This document shows positions 8,972-22,919 of a stretch of 24,000 nucleotides of DNA, one piece after another; position 1 is the stretch's first letter, and each line of letters opens with the position of its first letter. The stretch is taken from NCBI GenBank assembly GCA_025210525.1, contig JAOARP010000029.1, forward strand, positions 108,739 to 132,738, in the 5' to 3' direction. This stretch comes from Marinisporobacter sp. (GTDB lineage: Bacteria; Bacillota; Clostridia; Peptostreptococcales; Thermotaleaceae). Position numbers and translations under genes: made by a program. The notes under the pieces are model-generated. The model was not told the origin of the DNA. It saw nothing but the letters and a program-made list of their open reading frames with translations, and made no database searches.

Positions 8972-9148
8972 GTTCCCCACCCCCCCTTATGCTAGAATAA
9001 ATTCTAAGACTATACTTATCTCTTAGGAATTGCTTAACCTTATAGAAAAAGTTCATATTACATCTTATGTGATGATATTCGTTCTTAAAACAATTATTTT
9101 CAAAATAAATTTCACAATGGATACCTCATAAGATAAAATAAGATACAT

Positions 9149-9200
9149 AAAAACCGTGCATAATGGAAGGTAACAATACCTTATCCTGCACGGTTTTTTC
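9149..9200 (-). terminator. Long hairpin terminator ending the stressosome/two-component operon
   Basis: CCGTGCA (9154-9160) pairs with TGCACGG (9187-9193), with an inner AAGGTA/TACCTT stem. T/A runs lie on both sides, so it could act bidirectionally. Confidence 0.6.
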
Positions 9201-9228: not shown

Positions 9229-10332
9229 TCAGGTAATAAATTTTTCCTCAAAATCAGCATATTCATAAGAAATCTTACGGAATTCTTCTTGAACATTCAT
9301 AAAAGCATCAATAATATCTGGGTCAAAGTGCTGCCCCTTTCCTTCAAGTATAATTTGAACAGCTTTTTCATGGGAATATGCTTGCTTATAAACTCGCTTG
9401 CTGATAAGTGCATCATACACATCTGCCACAGCCATAAGTCTTCCTGACAGAAAAATTTCTTCTCCTACCAGCCTATCAGGATAGCCGGTTCCATCCCATT
9501 TTTCATGATGAGAACGTGCTAGCTCCATTGCGCATTTCAAAAAAGAACTATCACCAAGATTCTTAGATGCTCTTGCTAAGGAATCATGTCCAAAAATGGT
9601 ATGCTTTTTCATTTCTTCAAACTCTTCATCTGTTAGTTTTCCGTTCTTCAATAAAATGTTATCTCTTATTCCTATTTTACCAATATCATGAAGAGGCGCT
9701 GATTTATATAGAAGCTCTATGGTTTCATTATTGAAAAACTCCTTGAACTTTGGATTTTTTTTAAGTTCCTCTGCCAATATTTTTATATAATTCTTTGTAC
9801 GCTTTATATGATCACCAGTTTCAGGATCTCGATATTCTGCCAGGCAAGCCAACGCTTCAATAGTTGCTTCCTGAGTAAGAGAAATTTCTTTTGTTCTTTC
9901 TATTACTTTTTTCTCAAGAATTTCATTTTGCTTTGATAATTCATATTTGGCAAGCTTCAAAGACAGGTGAGTAAAAACTCTAGCTTTCACCTCAAGAATT
10001 TCAAAAGGCTTGGTTACATAGTCCACTGCTCCTAGTTCAAATCCTTTTGTCTTGCTGTTTATATCTGTCATTGCGGTTAAAAATATAATAGGAATTTTTG
10101 AGGTAGCTTTATTCTCTTTAATGCGGCGGCATACTTCATATCCATCCATACCAGGCATCATGATATCCAATAAAATAATATCCGGTACTTCCATTTCTAT
10201 ATTTTCAAGGGCAGATTCTCCATCCATCGCAACGGATATCTCGTAATCGTCACCAAGTGCTTCTACAAGTATATCCACATTAACTTCCGTATCATCTACA
10301 ATTAGCACCGTACATTCTGAAAGCTTTTTCAT
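9229..10332 (-). CDS. Response regulator with HD-GYP domain (predicted c-di-GMP phosphodiesterase, RpfG-like)
   Basis: 367 aa. REC domain (VLIVDD, LLDIMMPGMDG), then LHDIGKIGI (HD) and HHEKWDGTGYP (GYP). ATG 10332 lies 1 nt after the kinase stop (10334-10336). Confidence 0.9.
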   Translation of the reverse strand: MKKLSECTVLIVDDTEVNVDILVEALGDDYEISVAMDGESALENIEMEVPDIILLDIMMPGMDGYEVCRRIKENKATSKIPIIFLTAMTDINSKTKGFELGAVDYVTKPFEILEVKARVFTHLSLKLAKYELSKQNEILEKKVIERTKEISLTQEATIEALACLAEYRDPETGDHIKRTKNYIKILAEELKKNPKFKEFFNNETIELLYKSAPLHDIGKIGIRDNILLKNGKLTDEEFEEMKKHTIFGHDSLARASKNLGDSSFLKCAMELARSHHEKWDGTGYPDRLVGEEIFLSGRLMAVADVYDALISKRVYKQAYSHEKAVQIILEGKGQHFDPDIIDAFMNVQEEFRKISYEYADFEEKFIT

Positions 10333-10333
10333 G

Positions 10334-13060
10334 TCATGTCAACTCCTTCAAGCTTGTTATCAATGTTTCCAGTATATACATTGCTTCTTTAAATTTATAT
10401 TTTGAAATAAGTTTTACAATATCTGCAGCTTGCCTTCGAAATTGAAGGGGCCATATTAATTTTTTATATTCTTCCATGATTTTAGAACATTTTTTAGGTT
10501 TTCGTGTTTTTACAAAGGGCTTAAGATCATTCAAAACTTTTAATAATTCCTCCTGTGTGGAAACAGTCCCCATTAACTGCGGCACATTCTCTTCTTCCGG
10601 AAGTGCATTCTCCAAATACTCTATCATTTTTGCAAGTATTACACTTGTTTCATCAATCATGATCTTTAGCGCATCCATTGAAGCCTGCTCCCTGATAGCT
10701 GTTTCCAGGTCAGCAGCCTTTTTTTGAATTGCAATAGCACCAATGCTGCCAGATACGCTCTTTAAAGTATGGACAAGCCGTTCTGCTGAGGACCAGTCTC
10801 CTTCTGAAAGCATCTGATCTATTTGTACAAAAATATATTTTTGTCCTGATATGTATTTTCTAAGTAAATTAATGTAGGATTTCTTTTTACCAAGTACTCT
10901 TTTTAATCCCATTTCTGCATCCAAACCGGGTATATTCAGTTCCAATCCATTTTCTACTGAATTCATTGACATCTGCTGCACTTGTTTCTCCTTTGATTGT
11001 TTAGTGGGAATCCATTTCAGAAGAGTTGAAAACAATTGCTCGGGATCAATGGGTTTTGCAATATGGTCATTCATTCCTGCTTCCGCACACTTCTCCTTAT
11101 CACCTACCATAGCATTTGCCGTCATTGCAATAATAGGTAGTGATACATACTCTATTTTTTTCCTAATTTCCTTTGTAGCCGTTACTCCGTCCATGACAGG
11201 CATCTGCATATCCATAAGCACAATATCATAGAACTCTTCATTAACTTTCTTAACGGCAATTTCTCCATTTTCAGCAATATCAATGAGAAAGCCGTAATCC
11301 TCCAGTAGTTCCACCGCAACCTGCTGATTCAGTTCATTATCTTCCACCAGTAATATACGTGCACCGCAGATAGATGCAAGATATTTTTCCGCAATATTAA
11401 TAGGACAATATTCCTCTTCTTCTCTTTCTTCAGTTTCACTTTCTCCTAATATTCGAAGTACAGAGTCAAGAAGCACTATGGAATTTACCGGTTTAACGAG
11501 AACCATCTCAATACCCGCATCTTCTGCTTCCTGGAAAACTTCCTCACGACCATATGCCGTTACTATGACATAGTGAGGTTTTGTTTTCAATGTCATTTTA
11601 TCTATTCTTTTTATGGTTTCTATACCCTTCAATCCTGGCATTTGCAAATCCATAAATACAATATCAAAAGGATCATTTCCATTATTAACTTTACCAATAA
11701 CCTGTAAAGCCTGTTCCCCTGATGCTGCTTCCATTACGTGTAAATTCATAGCCCTAAGCATTTCTGAAAGTATAATTCTTGCATGAAAATTATCATCCAC
11801 TACAAGCACCTTTCCATTCACTAAATTTGTAGAAGGTAGATAAGCTTTTTCCGTTGCTTTACTTATACCTAATTTAGCAGTAAACCAGAAGGTGCTTCCT
11901 TTACCTATTTCTGTTTTAACGCCTACATCCCCATCCATCAAATTAGCCAATTTTTTAGAAATAGCAAGGCCCAATCCAGTACCACCATATTTTCTTGTTA
12001 TAGAAGTATCACACTGCTGAAAAGATTTGAACAGCTTATTTTTCTGTTCTTCTGTCATCCCAATTCCCGTATCCTGAACTTCAAACTTCACCAAACATTC
12101 ATTTTCCCATTCAGTTTTTTTACGAATTCCTACAATGATTTCTCCTTTATCTGTAAATTTAACAGCATTATTTGTGTAGTTTATTAGAATTTGACCTAAC
12201 CGCAGTGGATCTCCACATAGGTCATTCGGTAATTCAGGATCAAGGTCAAAAATTAACTCAAGCCCCTTAGAGGAGCACTTTTCACCAATAACAGTTAGCA
12301 GGTTATCCAGTACTTGATCCAGTTTGAAATCTATTTTTTCAATTTCCAGTTTGCCTGATTCTATTTTTGAAAAATCCAATATATCGTTAATAATTCCCAA
12401 TAGATGCTGACTGGATTTCTGTATTTTATCAATGTAATCCTTTTGCTTTGGGTTTAAGTCTGTTTTTTGAATTAAGTAAGTCATTCCCATAATAGCATTC
12501 ATAGGTGTTCGAATTTCATGGCTCATGTTAGCAAGAAAATCTACCTTAGCTTGTGCAGCTACTTCTGAAATATTTTTAGCCTTTTTTAACTCTTCTGCAT
12601 AAACAATTAGTTCATCATTCTTTTTTTTAAGTTCATTCATCAACTCAGCTCTTGAGGGTAGTAAGAGTTCTCTTCTTATTTTGTCAATAAAATCATCGGT
12701 AATAAAAAAACTTGAATCACTTAAATTAGAATATGCCTCCACAGTTAATGAACCATCTTTTGAATTTTCCATATAGAATTTATCAAAAAACTCATTTCCA
12801 AAGAAATAATTTCCGCTATTTGGCATTCGACTAAATCTGAACATAAGTGCTTTCAGGTTATTGATCTCAGTTATGAAAGTTGAAATTAATATTTCATTAT
12901 CACCCCGGTAGCCTATTCTGCACATTTCTGATATAGCAATTTCAATTCTTGTAGCCTTAATTTCGGAATAATTGAACTTCTTAACAAGTCGCTGAATTTT
13001 TTTTCTAGCTTCTATTCTAGAATCTGTGTTGGTAACTTTAATAACACCTAATTCAATCAT
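10334..13060 (-). CDS. Cytoplasmic hybrid histidine kinase: N-terminal RsbT-like degenerate domain, coiled coil, HisKA, HATPase_c, REC, REC, Hpt
   Basis: 908 aa with no TM segment. H-box [14 protein letters not shown]; G-boxes QDTGIGM and [16 protein letters not shown]1 reads [14 protein letters not shown] and REC2 reads [18 protein letters not shown]. Hpt motif [12 protein letters not shown]. Confidence 0.9.
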
Positions 13061-13084
13061 ATTTCTTTACCTCTTCCCAAAATT

Positions 13085-13672
13085 CTACATTGAATATTTT
13101 AATACAATGCAAGATGCATCATCGTTTTTTTTCCAAAAATACTCCAATATCCTGGCGGCGATACTCCCGGCATTTTCTCTTAATAATCCCACATAATTAA
13201 TCAGATCAAAATGTTCCTTAATACCATCAGAATGCATAAGTATCGTATCTCCAGGATAAAGCTTCATACGATGCTTTTGAGGTTTTCTCATCCTGTAGCC
13301 TATTGTTCCATCCTTGGGAATAAGTCTGGTTGGCTTTGTTCCAAAAATTCTCACAGTAATATTTCCAATTCCAACATAGGTTAATTCCCCTGTCAAAATA
13401 TCTAAATGACACACCGCCGCCACAGCTCCCCTTGTTCCTTTTAAATGTTCATGGAGACCATTGATCATGTCTGTAAGGTCCATCCGATAATTATTTTTCA
13501 GATATTTCTTAGCTGAAAGAGCTATTTTTCTTGCTTCTGAACCATGTCCAAGTACATCAATCAATGCAAGAAAACATTGATGATCATATTCCTGGATTAC
13601 TCCTATATCACCGCATTCCGATTCATCTCCCAGCAGAGCTCGAAAAGTCATTCCTAAATCAATATTTCGCAT
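13085..13672 (-). CDS. rsbX: RsbX-like PP2C/SpoIIE-family phosphatase
   Basis: About 195 aa, close to the 199 aa of B. subtilis RsbX. Motifs seen: ECGD, ALIDVLGHGSEA, YVGIGN, MHSDGI. ATG 13672 forms a TAATG overlap with the upstream stop; the track's GTG 13684 is also possible. Confidence 0.7.
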   Translation of the reverse strand: MRNIDLGMTFRALLGDESECGDIGVIQEYDHQCFLALIDVLGHGSEARKIALSAKKYLKNNYRMDLTDMINGLHEHLKGTRGAVAAVCHLDILTGELTYVGIGNITVRIFGTKPTRLIPKDGTIGYRMRKPQKHRMKLYPGDTILMHSDGIKEHFDLINYVGLLRENAGSIAARILEYFWKKNDDASCIVLKYSM

Positions 13673-14133
13673 TATTTCATCCACCTTCGCACAAGCACTC
13701 GAGTTCCCCTTCCCATTAAAGATTCCATATAAAATTCGTCCATAATTCTTTTTACACTGGGTAAACCAAGTCCTAAACTATTTGGTAATGAGCTATATTG
13801 TTCTTGCATAGCAAGTTCAATATCTCTTATTCCAGGGCCATTATCACTTGCATATATTTCAAGTCCTTTTCGTCCATCTTTTAGATTTTTAATAATACTA
13901 ATAATCATCTCACCTTTTTTAGCATAACGTATAATATTTGTCGATAATTCAGAAGCAGCTGTGGCAATCATCACTTCATCAGTACTCATAAAGCCCGCTT
14001 TTACTGACATTTCCCTAGCAATAAATATCACATGTCCATTATCATAATCCTCTACCAACTTAACCAATACTGATTCTAGTATATTTACATTCTTACCTTG
14101 GAAAAGCGTGAATTCCCCTTCTAATTTATCCAT
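13672..14133 (-). CDS. rsbT: RsbT-like anti-sigma-regulatory-factor-type Ser/Thr kinase (GHKL)
   Basis: 153 aa. N-box ASELSTNIIRYA, G1 SDNGPGI, G2 LGLGLPSVKRIMDEF. TAATG overlap with the rsbS-like stop. Confidence 0.8.
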   Translation of the reverse strand: MDKLEGEFTLFQGKNVNILESVLVKLVEDYDNGHVIFIAREMSVKAGFMSTDEVMIATAASELSTNIIRYAKKGEMIISIIKNLKDGRKGLEIYASDNGPGIRDIELAMQEQYSSLPNSLGLGLPSVKRIMDEFYMESLMGRGTRVLVRRWMK

Positions 14134-14528
14134 TACTTATTACCTCTACTCTTATTCAATTGAGCTCTGGAAATGATCTTAAGACCTTGCTCTAAATTCA
14201 TTGCCGTTTTTATACAGCTTACATCTACATTTAAATCCAATAAAGCAGACACTACACCCGGTCTCAGACCAATCCATACAACCATTACTCCCATTAGTGA
14301 AATTGCCTTTGAAGCTTTTCTTAGTGCTTCAAAACTATATGAATCCAATACAGATACTATACTTAAATCAAATATTGTCCCTTTGATATAAGAATTATTT
14401 GCTTTCATTAGTACCCTGCTGCTGCCAATTTCTATATCCTCATCTGTCATTTCATTTGGTAATGTTACTATAAGGCATCTCTGTACTACCGTAATAGATG
14501 TATTTAAACTACTATTCAAATCACTCAT
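14133..14528 (-). CDS. rsbS: RsbS-like single-STAS-domain protein
   Basis: 131 aa. IFDLSIVSVLDSYSFEAL..LMGVMVVWIGLRPGVVSALLDLNV..LEQGL lines up with B. subtilis RsbS around the phosphorylatable Ser (the D-S dipeptide is conserved). Confidence 0.75.
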   Translation of the reverse strand: MSDLNSSLNTSITVVQRCLIVTLPNEMTDEDIEIGSSRVLMKANNSYIKGTIFDLSIVSVLDSYSFEALRKASKAISLMGVMVVWIGLRPGVVSALLDLNVDVSCIKTAMNLEQGLKIISRAQLNKSRGNK

Positions 14529-14543
14529 ATCGATACTTCCTTA

Positions 14544-15353
14544 CTATTCATTTTTCTTTTTTACTTCTAGATTTAATATTGTAAAAGCTTCTGCAAGTGC
14601 ATCACTTAAAGTAGACTTTGTGTTTATATTATCCATCTCAATACCTAACTGAATAATGGTTTGTGCTACTGCAGGACTTATCCCTGAAAGTATACATTCA
14701 CACCCCATAAGCTTTGTAGCCTTTGTTATTTTAATCATATGGTTTGCTACTGCTGTATCTACAGCAGCCACACCATGAATGTCCATAATGATAACTTTTG
14801 AATAGGTTTCGATAATTTTATTCAACATGGTATCCATCATATGCTGAGCTCTCATTGAATCCACAATCCCTACCACAGGGAGAACCAATACTCCATCCCA
14901 CAGCTTTATAGTCGGTGTTGCCATTTCACGTATGGTGCGGTTTTGTTCCCTTACCCTTTCTTCATATTGAGCTCGTTCCGTCATATCAACAATAAACTCA
15001 AGCCCTCCAATTACAACATTGTTTTCATTCTTTAAAGGTACTGCAAAATATTCAAAGGGTGTATTCACACCCCCTATTATCGCTTCATTTCGAGAAGAAC
15101 ACATTTTTCCGCTTTCAAGGGTTCTCTTCATACGGCATTCATCCGTATTGCAGTGCAGGGATTTTAAGAACTCACAGCACTTTTTTCCTACAATTTCTTT
15201 CCATTTTTTATTGCTAATCTTTTGGAAAGCATGATTCATATAGATTATCCTTAATTCTTTATCTACTGCCATTACCGGAGTAGGGATTTGATCAAGAATT
15301 TGCATTTTAGTCATAGTAGTTGCTTCTTGAAAATTTTCAGTGATCTTTTTCAT
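14544..15353 (-). CDS. rsbR: RsbR-like stressosome sensor: Cys-rich PAS domain + C-terminal STAS
   Basis: The STAS region IMDIHGVAAVDTAVANH..LMGCECILSGISPAVAQTIIQLGI retains both RsbR-type Thr positions (VDT, AQT). The N-terminal PAS-like fold carries C60 C61 H68 C69 C74 C86 (track numbering). ATG 15353 with SD AGGAGG is preferred over the track's TTG 15356. Confidence 0.75.
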   Translation of the reverse strand: MKKITENFQEATTMTKMQILDQIPTPVMAVDKELRIIYMNHAFQKISNKKWKEIVGKKCCEFLKSLHCNTDECRMKRTLESGKMCSSRNEAIIGGVNTPFEYFAVPLKNENNVVIGGLEFIVDMTERAQYEERVREQNRTIREMATPTIKLWDGVLVLPVVGIVDSMRAQHMMDTMLNKIIETYSKVIIMDIHGVAAVDTAVANHMIKITKATKLMGCECILSGISPAVAQTIIQLGIEMDNINTKSTLSDALAEAFTILNLEVKKKNE

Positions 15354-15750
15354 CAATTTCCTCCTTGATAATTTCTTTTTATATATTATTTAATTAGGCC
15401 ACATGTAGAATATATAGTTTCACGTAAATATAGTTTTTAAATTTAAACCTTATATTTTCAACATTATTTCTAAATATATTATATTATCTTTGTACAATTA
15501 TAGAACTTATGGCATTGTTGAAATTTTATAATAATAAAAAATGAAAAATACTTTGGTGATATATAGTAACAGTCATCAATTAACTATTGATAATATTGTT
15601 TAGTTACTAAAAACCTTTCCCAAGAATTTATATTCTTAAGAAAGATAAGATTAAACTTTTTAAGCATTTAAAAAGTTTAGTATGAATGCATAAATATTTT
15701 TCAATTATTATAAATTTATTCAGTTATTATCCTTAAATTGTAATTATAGT

Positions 15751-15782
15751 AAAAAAAAGCTACCTCTTTGATTGAGATAGCT
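15751..15782 (-). terminator. Rho-independent terminator (copy 1 of a repeated hairpin module)
   Basis: On the minus strand, AGCTATCTC-AATCAAA-GAGGTAGCT (one G-U pair) is followed by T8. It is nearly identical to the hairpin at 23275-23302. Confidence 0.55.
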
Positions 15783-15896
15783 TTCATCTTATCTGCTAGT
15801 AATGTATAAATTAGCTTTACCTATTTGTATTTTTATTTCTTTTTCTATATGATTATTTTTTTCAGAATGCTTTTGAGAAATTATATTTTCTCTAGT

Positions 15897-15931
15897 AAAA
15901 GTGCCTGATGTCCAAAGCTCCAGGCACTTTT
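15897..15931. terminator. Bidirectional hairpin terminator after the small membrane protein gene
   Basis: GTGCCTG (15901-15907) pairs with CAGGCAC (15921-15927), flanked by AAAA on the left and TTTT on the right. Confidence 0.6.
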
Positions 15932-15955
15932 AAAATTATAGAATTTGATTATTTA

Positions 15956-20754: not shown

Positions 20755-21507
20755 CTACATGTTTATTGGTTGATTTACTATCGCTTCTATATCTGTTCCA
20801 AAATCAGATTTTTTTCTCTTATACCCCTTTGTAAATGCATCCACATTCTTTATTATATTCTCCTTATCATACACAAAGAAAAATAGATAATCAGTTTTAT
20901 AATGAAATGCATCTGCCCCCATTTCCTCAGTAAGATTCCTTTCAGTCATACTTTTTCTTGTGCATTTAACTTCTATGACTACATCATATTCATTACCAAT
21001 TTTAATTTTACTTAAATCTTCTTTTTTTATTGTTCCCTTTCCATGTATTTTTTCTTGATACATTACTTGAATATGCTTGTAAAAATTTTTTAGTATTCTC
21101 CTTACTATAATTAATGCAACATTTCTTTCTAAATAATAATCATTACCATTATCTGATTCTTTTGTACCACTATATTTATCGTTATCTATTTCTTCTTTTA
21201 ATATTTGAAGAAACTTTATACCACTTTCAATACCTTCACTTAACATATTTTGGCTCTCTATTTTGGAAAATTTGTTGATATTTCGTTCTACATTAAATAA
21301 AAATTCCTTGGTCTTTTGATTATTTTTAAATATTTGCCTTAATATAGCTTCTGTGCCTCTTACCCATTGATTATAACTTTTTTCCATTTCTGCAATTGAA
21401 GAATTTTTATTCAAAAACCCAATACTATTATTCCCTAACTTTATTTGTGTATCAATTCTTTCAATACTTGTCTTTCTGCATTCATTTGCCAAAATATCAC
21501 TTTTCAT
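20755..21507 (-). CDS. Hypothetical effector-like protein: helical N-terminal domain + C-terminal PD-(D/E)xK-like region
   Basis: About 250 aa from ATG 21507, which forms an ATGA overlap with the upstream stop (the track's start at 21525 is also possible). The C-terminus reads KKEDLSKIKIGNEYDVVIEVKCTRK..TDYLFFFVYDKENII, giving acidic residues, then E-V-K in a beta-strand-like context. I recognised no named family. Confidence 0.55.
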   Translation of the reverse strand: MKSDILANECRKTSIERIDTQIKLGNNSIGFLNKNSSIAEMEKSYNQWVRGTEAILRQIFKNNQKTKEFLFNVERNINKFSKIESQNMLSEGIESGIKFLQILKEEIDNDKYSGTKESDNGNDYYLERNVALIIVRRILKNFYKHIQVMYQEKIHGKGTIKKEDLSKIKIGNEYDVVIEVKCTRKSMTERNLTEEMGADAFHYKTDYLFFFVYDKENIIKNVDAFTKGYKRKKSDFGTDIEAIVNQPINM

Positions 21508-22706
21508 TTTCGATTTACTCCCCATCTAATATAGAATAGAAATAATGGTTCAAGAATATAAATCTGTTCATCTTTCCATTCAAACACTTGATATATCGCT
21601 TCACTATTAGTCATAATATCTTGAATTGCTTGCAATGTTTTTTTTAGTTTATTTTTATCAAGTTTATCCTCTATATTCACCATTAAATGATCTACTCTAT
21701 TTTTCAATTCATCAATTGTTATGCTTATTAACGGTGGATCTGATGCAATAGCTTTCAAAATAATTCCGTAAACATCTAGATCGTGTTCCCCATCAATTTT
21801 ATATGTTTTTCTTTTTTGTCCTCTTGTAGATGGTCCAGATTTAAGTTTTTTTACAACTTCTTTATAAGGTAAATTTATGGTAGTAAATTTATAACTTTTA
21901 TCCAGTAATGTCATATCTAATTCATTAACCTCATCTATATTAGATATTAATGATAAATTTAAGCATATAGATTGCATCAGTTGAGGAGATGTAAGGCTTT
22001 CTATTGCAATTTTTTCTGCAAAAATATCTGTAATCTCTATTCCCAACTTATCAAAACCAGTTATTGCTATTTTTTTTAGTTCTTCCTTTTTCCACGGTTC
22101 TATATTTATCAAATTTAGTCTTCCACTTAAATCAGCATTCTTTCTAATTGCATCATCTGCCCTGTGAGGTAATGAAATTACTATTGCTTTAAGTTCTTTT
22201 CTAATAGCATCTTTTAATTGGTATGCAATATCAAATTGTAATTCTTCTGATGCATAGTGAAAATCATCTAAAACGAGCACCAAATTATTATTCTTGAAAT
22301 AATCAATAATTGTATCTTTATTTGCTAAATATCTATCCCTTGAAGCTATACTTTTTATTCTCATATTTTCTTCATTAATACTTTCTTTTGAAGTATTCAC
22401 TTTAGAATATTCACCTTCAACTACTAATCCCAGTTTTGTTGCTATAACTTCCCAAAAATTTGTTGAATTTTTAAAATCACTTCCTGTTAAAGATATCATA
22501 TTATCTAATCCTATAACTTTTTCACATAAAACTGTCTTCCCTGTTTTAGAGGGTCCGATAATCGAGGTAAGATAACCCGGAGTGTTTAAAGCTTGTTTTA
22601 ATCTAAACTCATAAGTAAACATTAATTCAGAAGATATTCTGGAAATATAAGTATATTCTGGAAATGCACCTGGTTTAAATACATCATATGATTGAAGTTT
22701 TTTCAT
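21504..22706 (-). CDS. P-loop NTPase (AAA+/ORC-like architecture) with a probable winged-helix C-terminus
   Basis: About 400 aa. Walker A is IIGPSKTGKTVL, Walker B is LVLVLDDFH, and VISLPHR is sensor-like. ATG 22706 has SD GGGGTGAGGA (the track starts at GTG 22715). Confidence 0.7.
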   Translation of the reverse strand: MKKLQSYDVFKPGAFPEYTYISRISSELMFTYEFRLKQALNTPGYLTSIIGPSKTGKTVLCEKVIGLDNMISLTGSDFKNSTNFWEVIATKLGLVVEGEYSKVNTSKESINEENMRIKSIASRDRYLANKDTIIDYFKNNNLVLVLDDFHYASEELQFDIAYQLKDAIRKELKAIVISLPHRADDAIRKNADLSGRLNLINIEPWKKEELKKIAITGFDKLGIEITDIFAEKIAIESLTSPQLMQSICLNLSLISNIDEVNELDMTLLDKSYKFTTINLPYKEVVKKLKSGPSTRGQKRKTYKIDGEHDLDVYGIILKAIASDPPLISITIDELKNRVDHLMVNIEDKLDKNKLKKTLQAIQDIMTNSEAIYQVFEWKDEQIYILEPLFLFYIRWGVNRK

Positions 22707-22919
22707 AATCCTCACCCCTTTTATAGCTTAAATCTTTTATATTTTATATTATATACTAAACTAATATTTTTTGATATGACTCATTAGTATTTTACACCTT
22801 TTTATAGCTTTTTATACTTATATACATTTTCAAACAACTTTATATACCCTTTATCACCAATGACGTTTCTTATCCTTATATACTTCATTTTTCTTATCTC
22901 TACTTCAATTTTTTAGAAA

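Follow-up and report, generated by a model that had tools for sequence, protein, structure and literature searches.

A putative stressosome-to-phosphorelay operon of Marinisporobacter sp. and the RsbT-like N-terminal domain of its hybrid kinase

The DNA analysed was a stretch of 24,000 nucleotides (nt) from Marinisporobacter sp. (GenBank assembly GCA_025210525.1, contig JAOARP010000029.1, positions 108,739 to 132,738 of the forward strand), referred to below as the window. An original prediction, made from the sequence alone, had placed here a stressosome-type module of rsbR-, rsbS-, rsbT- and rsbX-like genes joined to genes for a hybrid histidine kinase and a response regulator that combines a receiver (REC) and an HD-GYP domain. 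The host is a marine Clostridia bacterium (Thermotaleaceae), and the six-gene operon was confirmed to be real. The main subject of this report is the N-terminal domain of the kinase, amino acids (aa) 1–135, a relative of RsbT that is considered as a candidate for the coupling between the two halves of the operon.

The six-gene operon and its products

The features of the locus are listed in the order of transcription, with the evidence for each in parentheses.

15354..15955, minus strand: upstream intergenic region, presumed promoter and leader (about 600 nt, AT-rich, GC 0.26)
15785-15755 and 15646-15613: terminator-like hairpins at the 5' end of the intergenic region, assigned to the upstream bPH_7 gene
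14544..15353, minus strand: rsbR-like gene, 269 aa (Pfam PAS_4, E = 2.4e-13, and STAS, E = 9.2e-14; solved structure 7o0i_B, E = 9.5e-46)
14133..14528, minus strand: rsbS-like gene, 131 aa, single STAS domain (Pfam STAS; solved RsbS relatives)
13672..14133, minus strand: rsbT-like gene for a GHKL serine kinase, 153 aa (Pfam HATPase_c and HATPase_c_2)
13085..13672, minus strand: rsbX-like gene for a single-domain PP2C phosphatase, 195 aa (Pfam SpoIIE)
10334..13060, minus strand: whole hybrid kinase gene, 908 aa (Pfam domains and the N-terminal domain)
12656..13060, minus strand: N-terminal domain of the kinase, here called the pseudo-RsbT domain, aa 1–135 (hhalign, AlphaFold2, Foldseek, gene linkage)
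10334..12655, minus strand: remainder of the kinase with linker, HisKA, HATPase_c, REC1, REC2 and Hpt (Pfam, conserved residues, hydropathy)
9229..10332, minus strand: response regulator gene, REC and HD-GYP, 367 aa (Pfam Response_reg and HD_5/HD)
9143..9196, minus strand: intrinsic terminator at the end of the operon (GC-rich hairpin followed by a U-run, about 33 nt past the response regulator stop)

All six open reading frames (ORFs) lie on the minus strand and fill 9229-15353; every coordinate and junction given earlier was reproduced. The gaps measure 15 nt between rsbR and rsbS, 24 nt between rsbX and the kinase gene and 1 nt between the kinase and response regulator genes, and TAATG overlaps join rsbS to rsbT and rsbT to rsbX. 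The second overlap depends on the ATG start of rsbX that gives 195 aa, and the same length was called in homologous loci. The ATG of rsbR is preceded by an AAGGAGG ribosome-binding site; the mechanical ORF list begins 3 nt earlier, at a TTG. The closing terminator folds as RNA with −26.4 kcal/mol (z = −3.8 against shuffled sequences). Because the junctions are tight and the unit is bracketed by terminators, the six genes look like a single operon, with transcription as one unit predicted from the spacing and the flanking terminators.

The RsbR-like protein consists of a PAS sensor (aa 21–129, PAS_4) and a STAS domain (aa 153–253). The best solved relative of the STAS half is the RsbR of the Vibrio vulnificus stressosome (7o0i_B); the match to Listeria RsbR reached about 1e-28, and the best SpoIIAA-like match (TM1442) 3e-5. 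Threonines had been expected at both positions equivalent to the phospho-acceptors T171 and T205 of Bacillus subtilis RsbR. This was borne out for the T205 equivalent, Thr200. The equivalent of T171 (T175 in Listeria) is a serine, Ser166 (VDSMRA), and serine occupies this position in all 62 homologues; Thr200 is conserved in 60 of the 62.

Three cysteines of the PAS domain, Cys59, Cys68 and Cys73 (C-x8-C-x4-C; window 14967-15293, minus strand), are invariant among the 62 PAS-STAS RsbR homologues; Cys60 and Cys85 vary in the same set. The triad resembles the Cys-ligated Fe-S PAS domain of NreB, and the conservation points to metal binding, an Fe-S cluster or a redox switch. Taken with the globin and hydrogenase-like sensors of sister loci, the triad suggests O2 or the redox state as the signal that stressosomes of this clade monitor in anaerobes. 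Two further cysteines lie in the STAS domain (Cys218 and Cys220, MGCEC; 14694-14702, minus strand) and are kept in 62/62 and 61/62 homologues; V. vulnificus RsbR has MGCDC.

In the RsbS-like protein the predicted D-S phospho-site was recovered as Ser63 (LDSYS), which aligns with the IDSF site of B. subtilis RsbS and is equivalent to Ser59. Its best solved relatives are the RsbS proteins of B. subtilis (6jhk, E = 3.5e-12), V. vulnificus (7o0i_a) and Listeria (6qcm). On the strength of such solved-structure matches the R and S proteins are stressosome-type STAS proteins, not SpoIIAA/RsbV-type ones, a distinction that the original prediction had proposed as a test. Since the STAS half of RsbR is highly similar to that of V. 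vulnificus RsbR, the complex of which has been solved (7o0i), R and S would be expected to assemble into a pseudo-icosahedral megadalton particle that sequesters RsbT.

The RsbT-like kinase has an intact N-box (SELSTN, aa 61–66), G1 box (DNGPG, aa 97) and G2 box (GLGLP, aa 121), all three invariant across the 26 members of the family alignment. Among solved structures it matched only SpoIIAB, and its match to the NCBIfam model spIIAB was below threshold. An identical protein is named RsbT at JGI and 'anti-sigma regulatory factor [Marinisporobacter sp.]' at NCBI. The closest solved relatives of the RsbX-like phosphatase are Moorella MtX (3zt9, E = 2.5e-20) and B. subtilis RsbX (3w40, E = 2.5e-11).

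Beyond its N-terminal domain the hybrid kinase comprises a helical linker (aa 136–171, opened by an SRxEL cap), HisKA (172–236, His181), HATPase_c (283–397), REC1 (Asp471), REC2 (569–679, Asp617) and Hpt (745–817, His764). The response regulator has a REC domain at aa 9–119 (Asp56) and an HD-GYP domain at aa 165–340, with HDIGK at 215 and HHEKWDGTGYP at 275–285 (HHE at 275, GYP at 283); its HD_5 match reached E = 8.6e-28. The best solved relatives of the regulator are the cyclic di-GMP (c-di-GMP) phosphodiesterases PA4781 (4r8z, E = 3.4e-51) and PmGH (4mcw, E = 4.3e-48). Aligned to these two, it keeps all HD-GYP motifs and metal ligands (E..H, HD, H, HHE..DG.GYP and D..D). Judged by these residues, the output module is a complete relay from hybrid kinase to REC-HD-GYP regulator with every phospho-acceptor present, and c-di-GMP is the presumed substrate. 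Hydropathy analysis found no segment hydrophobic enough for a transmembrane helix in any of the six proteins. A check of the window's ORFs down to a length of 100 aa turned up no sigma factor, RsbU, RsbV or RsbW, nor did the 16-kb contexts of three relatives contain a sigma module.

The gene assignments of the original prediction thus fared well. Pfam confirmed each domain named, among them those of the RsbT-like GHKL kinase, the RsbX-like PP2C phosphatase and the REC-HD-GYP protein. The lack of RsbU, RsbV, RsbW and sigma genes in the window stood, and an output in the form of a phosphorelay ending in c-di-GMP hydrolysis agrees with the intact relay residues and HD-GYP motifs. The HisKA-HATPase-REC-REC-Hpt kinase of 908 aa was correctly described as to domains and solubility, and incompletely in that aa 1–135 had been passed over. 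That the locus is a stressosome-to-phosphorelay operon is regarded as very probable.

The N-terminal domain of the hybrid kinase

Residues 1–135 of the kinase gave no Pfam match even at E = 10, no NCBIfam match and no match to RsbU_N. Word-indexed homologue searches with this segment returned just one or two fragments, and an exhaustive HMMER search was used instead. It yielded 65 representative clusters, in nearly all of which the match begins at about residue 1. Among 43 fusion proteins (42 of the longer homologues and the kinase of the window) the domain is followed by HisKA/HATPase in 36, by a class III cyclase in three, by PP2C in two, and by GGDEF and HD-GYP in one each. In the family alignment Arg19 is invariant, and Lys21, Arg38, Ser44-Glu45 and Phe92-Asp93 are nearly so. 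An S/T-R-x-E-L cap opens the linker helix, in which E139 and L140 hardly vary, whichever output type follows.

Comparison with the RsbT family by hhalign gave a probability of 94.6% (E = 7e-8), with the SE..R helix paired to the RsbT N-box. Plain hidden Markov model (HMM) searches also linked the domain and genuine RsbT proteins in both directions (independent E values 2e-6 to 9e-4). The N-box Asn at E+4 is missing, and a deletion of about 20 residues covers the region of the RsbT G1 box, ATP lid and G2 box. A single-sequence AlphaFold2 model of kinase residues 1–175 was unusable (predicted local distance difference test, pLDDT, 43); the model built from the family alignment reached pLDDT 94 and a predicted TM-score of 0.88, with an alpha/beta fold in the order E-H-H-E-E-H-E-E-H. 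Searched against the PDB with Foldseek, it gave 19 top matches that were all SpoIIAB, RsbW or UsfX (probability 1.0, target-normalised TM-score up to 0.83); the catalytic and ATP-binding domains of histidine kinases appeared only at E > 0.2. Because the domain is homologous to GHKL serine kinases but has neither the N-box Asn nor G1 and G2, it appears from sequence and model to be a catalytically dead relative of RsbT-type kinases, that is, a pseudokinase. It is apparently undescribed: no RsbT-like or pseudokinase domain on stressosome outputs was found in the literature, in which subscription journals were thinly covered, so that an earlier description is possible.

RsbU_N was considered as the identity of this adaptor and rejected, with no match at E values up to 10 and a model that is alpha/beta rather than a four-helix bundle. 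One homologue of 552 aa (P0129) carries two tandem pseudo-RsbT copies, the second from about residue 130.

The distribution of the domain was followed in a scan with an RsbT profile, one genome per species, which gave 73 loci besides the window, 66 of them with downstream sequence that was analysed by ORF calling and HMM. The loci came from Clostridia, Spirochaetes, Desulfobacterota, Alpha-, Beta-, Gamma- and Zetaproteobacteria, a Chitinophagales metagenome-assembled genome (MAG) and one MAG labelled Thermoplasmatota. The gene after rsbX, or after rsbT where rsbX is absent, begins with the pseudo-RsbT domain in 62 of the 66, whatever the output, a figure conditional on the one RsbT clade with which the loci were seeded. 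Outside that position the domain HMM, run over 3,882 ORFs with a length of 60 aa or more, gave only seven weak cross-matches, all to RsbT proteins themselves. The outputs so marked are hybrid kinases at 51 loci (followed by a REC-HD-GYP gene at 34 of these), and otherwise class III cyclases, GGDEF cyclases and PAS-PP2C phosphatases. The linkage holds for loci with PAS-type and with globin-type RsbR, and the domain is kept at five loci where rsbX is missing (L014, L020, L021, L024 and L046). At the full Vibrio-type locus of Deefgea salmonis (L069) the kinase N-terminus was recognised weakly, by an enriched HMM only (E = 6e-6). The six-gene layout recurs in Clostridium sp. JS66 and Acetobacterium woodii, and without the HD-GYP gene in Clostridium tagluense. 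Overall, the Vibrio-type architecture was seen in more than 60 genomes, spread over Clostridia, Spirochaetes, Desulfobacterota and Proteobacteria. This recurrence of gene order in dozens of unrelated genomes is more than chance.

Relation to known stressosomes and the proposed coupling

In V. vulnificus the order is rsbR-rsbS-rsbT-rsbX followed by VvD1, a PAS-containing hybrid kinase, and VvD2, for which c-di-GMP degradation is predicted; RsbRST modules with two-component outputs are traced to Pane-Farre et al. (2005), as quoted in the papers on this system (PMC9237108, PMC10014275, PMC3360785). The V. vulnificus and V. brasiliensis loci were treated by Jia et al. (2016; PMC4976288), Heinz et al. 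(2022; PMC9237108) and Cutugno et al. (2023; PMC10014275). The D1 and D2 transcripts of V. vulnificus follow those of rsbRSTX, and deletion mutants affect motility and fleQ. The layout of rsbRSTX, kinase and HD-GYP genes is thus not new, and the present locus is an ordinary member of the Vibrio-type rsbRSTX-D1-D2 class. The wiring to a kinase and an HD-GYP regulator in place of sigma-B, as originally predicted, stands as a layout and falls as a novelty.

The likeness to the Vibrio locus extends from the order of the six genes, with a soluble hybrid kinase and a predicted c-di-GMP-degrading regulator within a few bases of rsbRSTX, to the serine at the first RsbR phospho-site and the close kinship of the two RsbR STAS halves. 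The differences lie in the sensor, which is a PAS domain with three invariant cysteines here and a haem globin in Vibrio; in the kinase, which has no PAS domain here, unlike VvD1 and the A. woodii orthologue; and in the host, here an anaerobic Gram-positive member of the Clostridia. The pseudo-RsbT domain is strong here and weak in the Vibrio-type kinase, as judged on that of Deefgea.

With B. subtilis and Listeria the locus shares the R, S, T and X proteins, the phospho-acceptor positions and the RsbX feedback phosphatase; it differs in that rsbX directly follows rsbT and that RsbU, RsbV, RsbW and sigma-B are absent from the window. RsbT binds the N-terminal adaptor of RsbU and orders a coiled-coil linker, and kinase and GGDEF outputs have been suggested to work alike (PMC12143880). 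The scheme proposed below follows that one, from released RsbT through an N-terminal adaptor and a helical linker to a dimeric effector, with an alpha/beta GHKL-like domain here in the place of the four-helix bundle of RsbU_N. The MtR-MtS-MtT-MtX-MtG module of Moorella thermoacetica (Quin et al. 2012) is likewise a Clostridia stressosome, with the RsbX-type MtX and an output that acts on c-di-GMP. That output is summarised in PMC12143880 as a single GGDEF cyclase with RsbU_N, controlled directly by MtT. The present locus, by contrast, has as its output a phosphorelay of several steps that leads to an HD-GYP hydrolase and has the pseudo-RsbT domain at its head.

The pseudo-RsbT domain shares its fold with SpoIIAB, RsbW, UsfX and RsbT (Pfam HATPase_c_2) and is homologous to RsbT at the profile level; unlike these proteins it has no ATP motifs, is not seen by the Pfam model and is fused to effectors instead of standing alone. 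For the output module the closest domain logic is that of RpfC/RpfG of Xanthomonas, in which a hybrid HisKA-HATPase-REC-Hpt kinase acts on a REC-HD-GYP c-di-GMP phosphodiesterase. RpfC is a membrane sensor of the diffusible signal factor, unlike the kinase studied here, which is soluble and has two REC domains and a pseudo-RsbT input domain.

The step from RsbT to the two-component output was described in the original prediction as mechanistically unresolved, and Heinz et al. agree (PMC9237108). They also noted that most outputs of rsbRSTX modules, VvD1 included, are without RsbU_N (PMC9237108). The following mechanism is proposed and, taken as a whole, is judged somewhat more probable than not. 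Its first steps, up to the action of RsbX, have the support of homology. RsbR, with its Cys-containing PAS and STAS domains, and RsbS would form the stressosome core, on which RsbT would be held. Upon a signal RsbT would phosphorylate Ser63 of RsbS and Ser166 and Thr200 of RsbR and then be released, and RsbX would reset the complex. Free RsbT would meet the pseudo-RsbT domain of the kinase rather than an RsbU_N bundle, possibly as a hetero-dimer akin to the self-dimers of SpoIIAB and RsbW. Binding would shift the packing of the SRxEL-capped linker into the DHp (dimerisation and histidine phosphotransfer) helix and so switch autophosphorylation at His181, by activation or by inhibition. Because of the domain order, phosphate is predicted to pass from His181 to Asp471 or Asp617, then to His764 of Hpt and to Asp56 of the response regulator, the phosphodiesterase activity of which would lower c-di-GMP. 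By analogy with RsbU_N, we infer that the pseudo-RsbT domain is an RsbT-receiving adaptor. The chance that it is the coupling interface is put at even or slightly better.

Several observations count against this mechanism. Heinz et al. detected no interaction between VvRsbT and VvD1 (PMC9237108). Three of five proteins with the domain that were sampled independently of RsbT have no adjacent rsbRSTX genes (L078, L080 and L082), so the domain is not exclusively a stressosome adaptor; the other two sit behind rsbRSTX, and one of the three orphan contigs is short. In a mirror-tree comparison the distances of the domain correlated with those of RsbT (r = 0.74), RsbS (0.745) and RsbX (0.75) without singling out RsbT; the correlation with the RsbR STAS domain was 0.51, and partial correlations were 0.30–0.37. 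The domain has lost the ATP lid, with which SpoIIAB-type kinases form part of their STAS-binding face, and a binding mode can therefore not be copied from known complexes. As regards the last step, some HD-GYP enzymes favour pGpG or cGAMP, and 5z7c, which bears on the question of HD-GYP substrate preference, is among the structure matches of the response regulator.

The most probable competitor, though still judged unlikely, is that the pseudo-RsbT domain mimics RsbT and docks the kinase on the RsbS/RsbR STAS surface. The phosphorylation state of the core would then control the kinase, and RsbT would only phosphorylate the STAS proteins. The homology of the domain to RsbT, itself a core-binding protein, is in keeping with this, as is the mirror-tree correlation, which is as good with RsbS as with RsbT. 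Such docking would account for the undetected VvRsbT-VvD1 interaction. The persistence of the domain at the five loci without rsbX indicates that it goes with R, S and T and not with X. In the SpoIIAB-SpoIIAA and RsbW-RsbV complexes, the segment with the G1 box and lid contributes to STAS binding, and it is this segment that is deleted from the domain. A dimeric kinase of 908 aa would moreover be sterically demanding on a crowded icosahedral surface, and the orphan proteins have no STAS genes nearby. RsbT is favoured as the partner of the domain, with the STAS core the less likely one.

A somewhat smaller probability is given to the view that RsbT signals by transient phosphorylation of the kinase, or that the two modules merely share a promoter, with the N-terminal domain serving as a dimerisation or ligand-sensing input unrelated to RsbT binding. 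Heinz et al. suggested an RsbT-dependent phosphorylation of the kinase downstream because they detected no stable interaction (PMC9237108). The occurrence of the domain away from rsbRSTX modules is compatible with such an input, and the conserved Ser/Thr-Arg/Lys at the start of the linker helix is in principle a possible phospho-site. However, the conserved S-x-x-E is an ordinary helix-capping box and can be conserved without being phosphorylated; a generic input would hardly account for a fixed place directly after rsbT or rsbX at 62 of 66 loci, over four output classes and several phyla; and descent from RsbT argues for a role in the same interaction network.

That rsbRSTX is a conventional partner switch for a sigma factor encoded elsewhere, with the two-component genes mere neighbours, is very improbable: the NCBI name of the RsbT protein and its SpoIIAB and sub-threshold spIIAB matches point that way, but the SpoIIAB match reflects a lack of RsbT sequence matches among solved structures rather than closer kinship, no sigma factor, RsbV or RsbW lies in the window or in the contexts of relatives, the STAS proteins fall with RsbR and RsbS of stressosomes and not with SpoIIAA, and gene overlap and cross-phylum synteny bind the modules together.

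Stressosomes are widespread, and their output mechanism is understood only where RsbT meets RsbU_N. Loci in which rsbRSTX is joined to two-component or second-messenger outputs form a large class that includes a pathogen, V. vulnificus, and for this class the published view is that no adaptor can be detected and that RsbT has not been seen to interact with an output (PMC9237108). For these the pseudo-RsbT domain is a possible missing link between the stressosome and two-component halves, and it offers a sequence signature by which stressosome outputs may be predicted in genomes. Whether the domain is a general receiver that lets RsbT or the stressosome core control outputs other than RsbU in many phyla is considered an even question. 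If it is, the outputs covered would be hybrid histidine kinases, class III nucleotide cyclases, GGDEF cyclases and PP2C phosphatases, and the absence of RsbU_N from Vibrio-type outputs would be explained. There would then be a second type of adaptor, descended from a duplicated and decayed copy of the switch kinase itself, and output recognition by stressosomes would amount to a pairing of kinase and pseudokinase.

Neighbouring genes and variation among related loci

The window further encodes a phosphofructokinase, a GNAT acetyltransferase, two ordinary two-component pairs, an Fe-S/FMN protein, an L,D-transpeptidase, a bacterial PH-domain protein, an Na+/H+ antiporter, and a DpnII-like nuclease with an AAA protein. 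The last two occupy 20755-22715 (minus strand) as a protein with a DpnII/MboI-like restriction endonuclease domain and an AAA_22 ATPase; the GC content here, 0.26–0.29, is the lowest of the window, and the segment may be a small defence or mobile island.

The leader upstream of rsbR (15354-15955) is unusually long. It gave no match to an Rfam family, and no c-di-GMP riboswitch or other known RNA was found in it. A promoter scan of the locus gave counts not above those of shuffled sequence and was not used. A terminator-like site within rsbR (15076-15053) has a weak T-tail and was put down to chance, the terminator count being not above that of shuffles.

In Clostridium-type loci a REC-HisKA-HATPase gene and a REC-AraC gene, both absent from the window, are conserved directly upstream of rsbR (L002:4374-6650, L003:4504-6775, L006:2616-5002 and L007:2250-4527); at L032:11369-13774 they lie downstream of the hybrid kinase instead. 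The pair may be a second, transcriptional output branch. Three of these loci (L003, which is C. tagluense, L006 and L007) have no REC-HD-GYP gene after the hybrid kinase. In its place C. tagluense has a methyl-accepting chemotaxis protein and two single-domain receivers, and L007 an HD-GYP protein of 676 aa in which no REC was detected; the terminal output of the relay is therefore exchangeable.

The kinase of a Vallitalea sp. MAG, the RsbT of which is 95% identical to that of the window, is split into ORFs of 317 and 591 aa (L005:9073-11813), probably by a frameshift or a MAG assembly error. The MAG labelled as a Thermoplasmatota archaeon (L052, JANQNL010000184.1) has a cluster of STAS, S, T, X, pseudo-RsbT kinase and REC genes, which is due either to horizontal transfer or to a binning error. 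The three orphan proteins L078, L080 and L082 correspond to P0150, P0142 and P0134; one of them has the architecture pseudo-RsbT-PAS-V4R and adjoins genes for a V4R protein and a HAMP-PP2C protein.

In a Bacillota MAG (L046:5757-7523, plus strand; JAEWAX010000141.1) the RsbR sensor consists of two 4Fe-4S motifs and a domain like the large subunit of Fe-only hydrogenase, joined to STAS. Next come S, T and a hybrid kinase with the pseudo-RsbT domain, with no rsbX; the locus may represent an H2- or redox-sensing stressosome.

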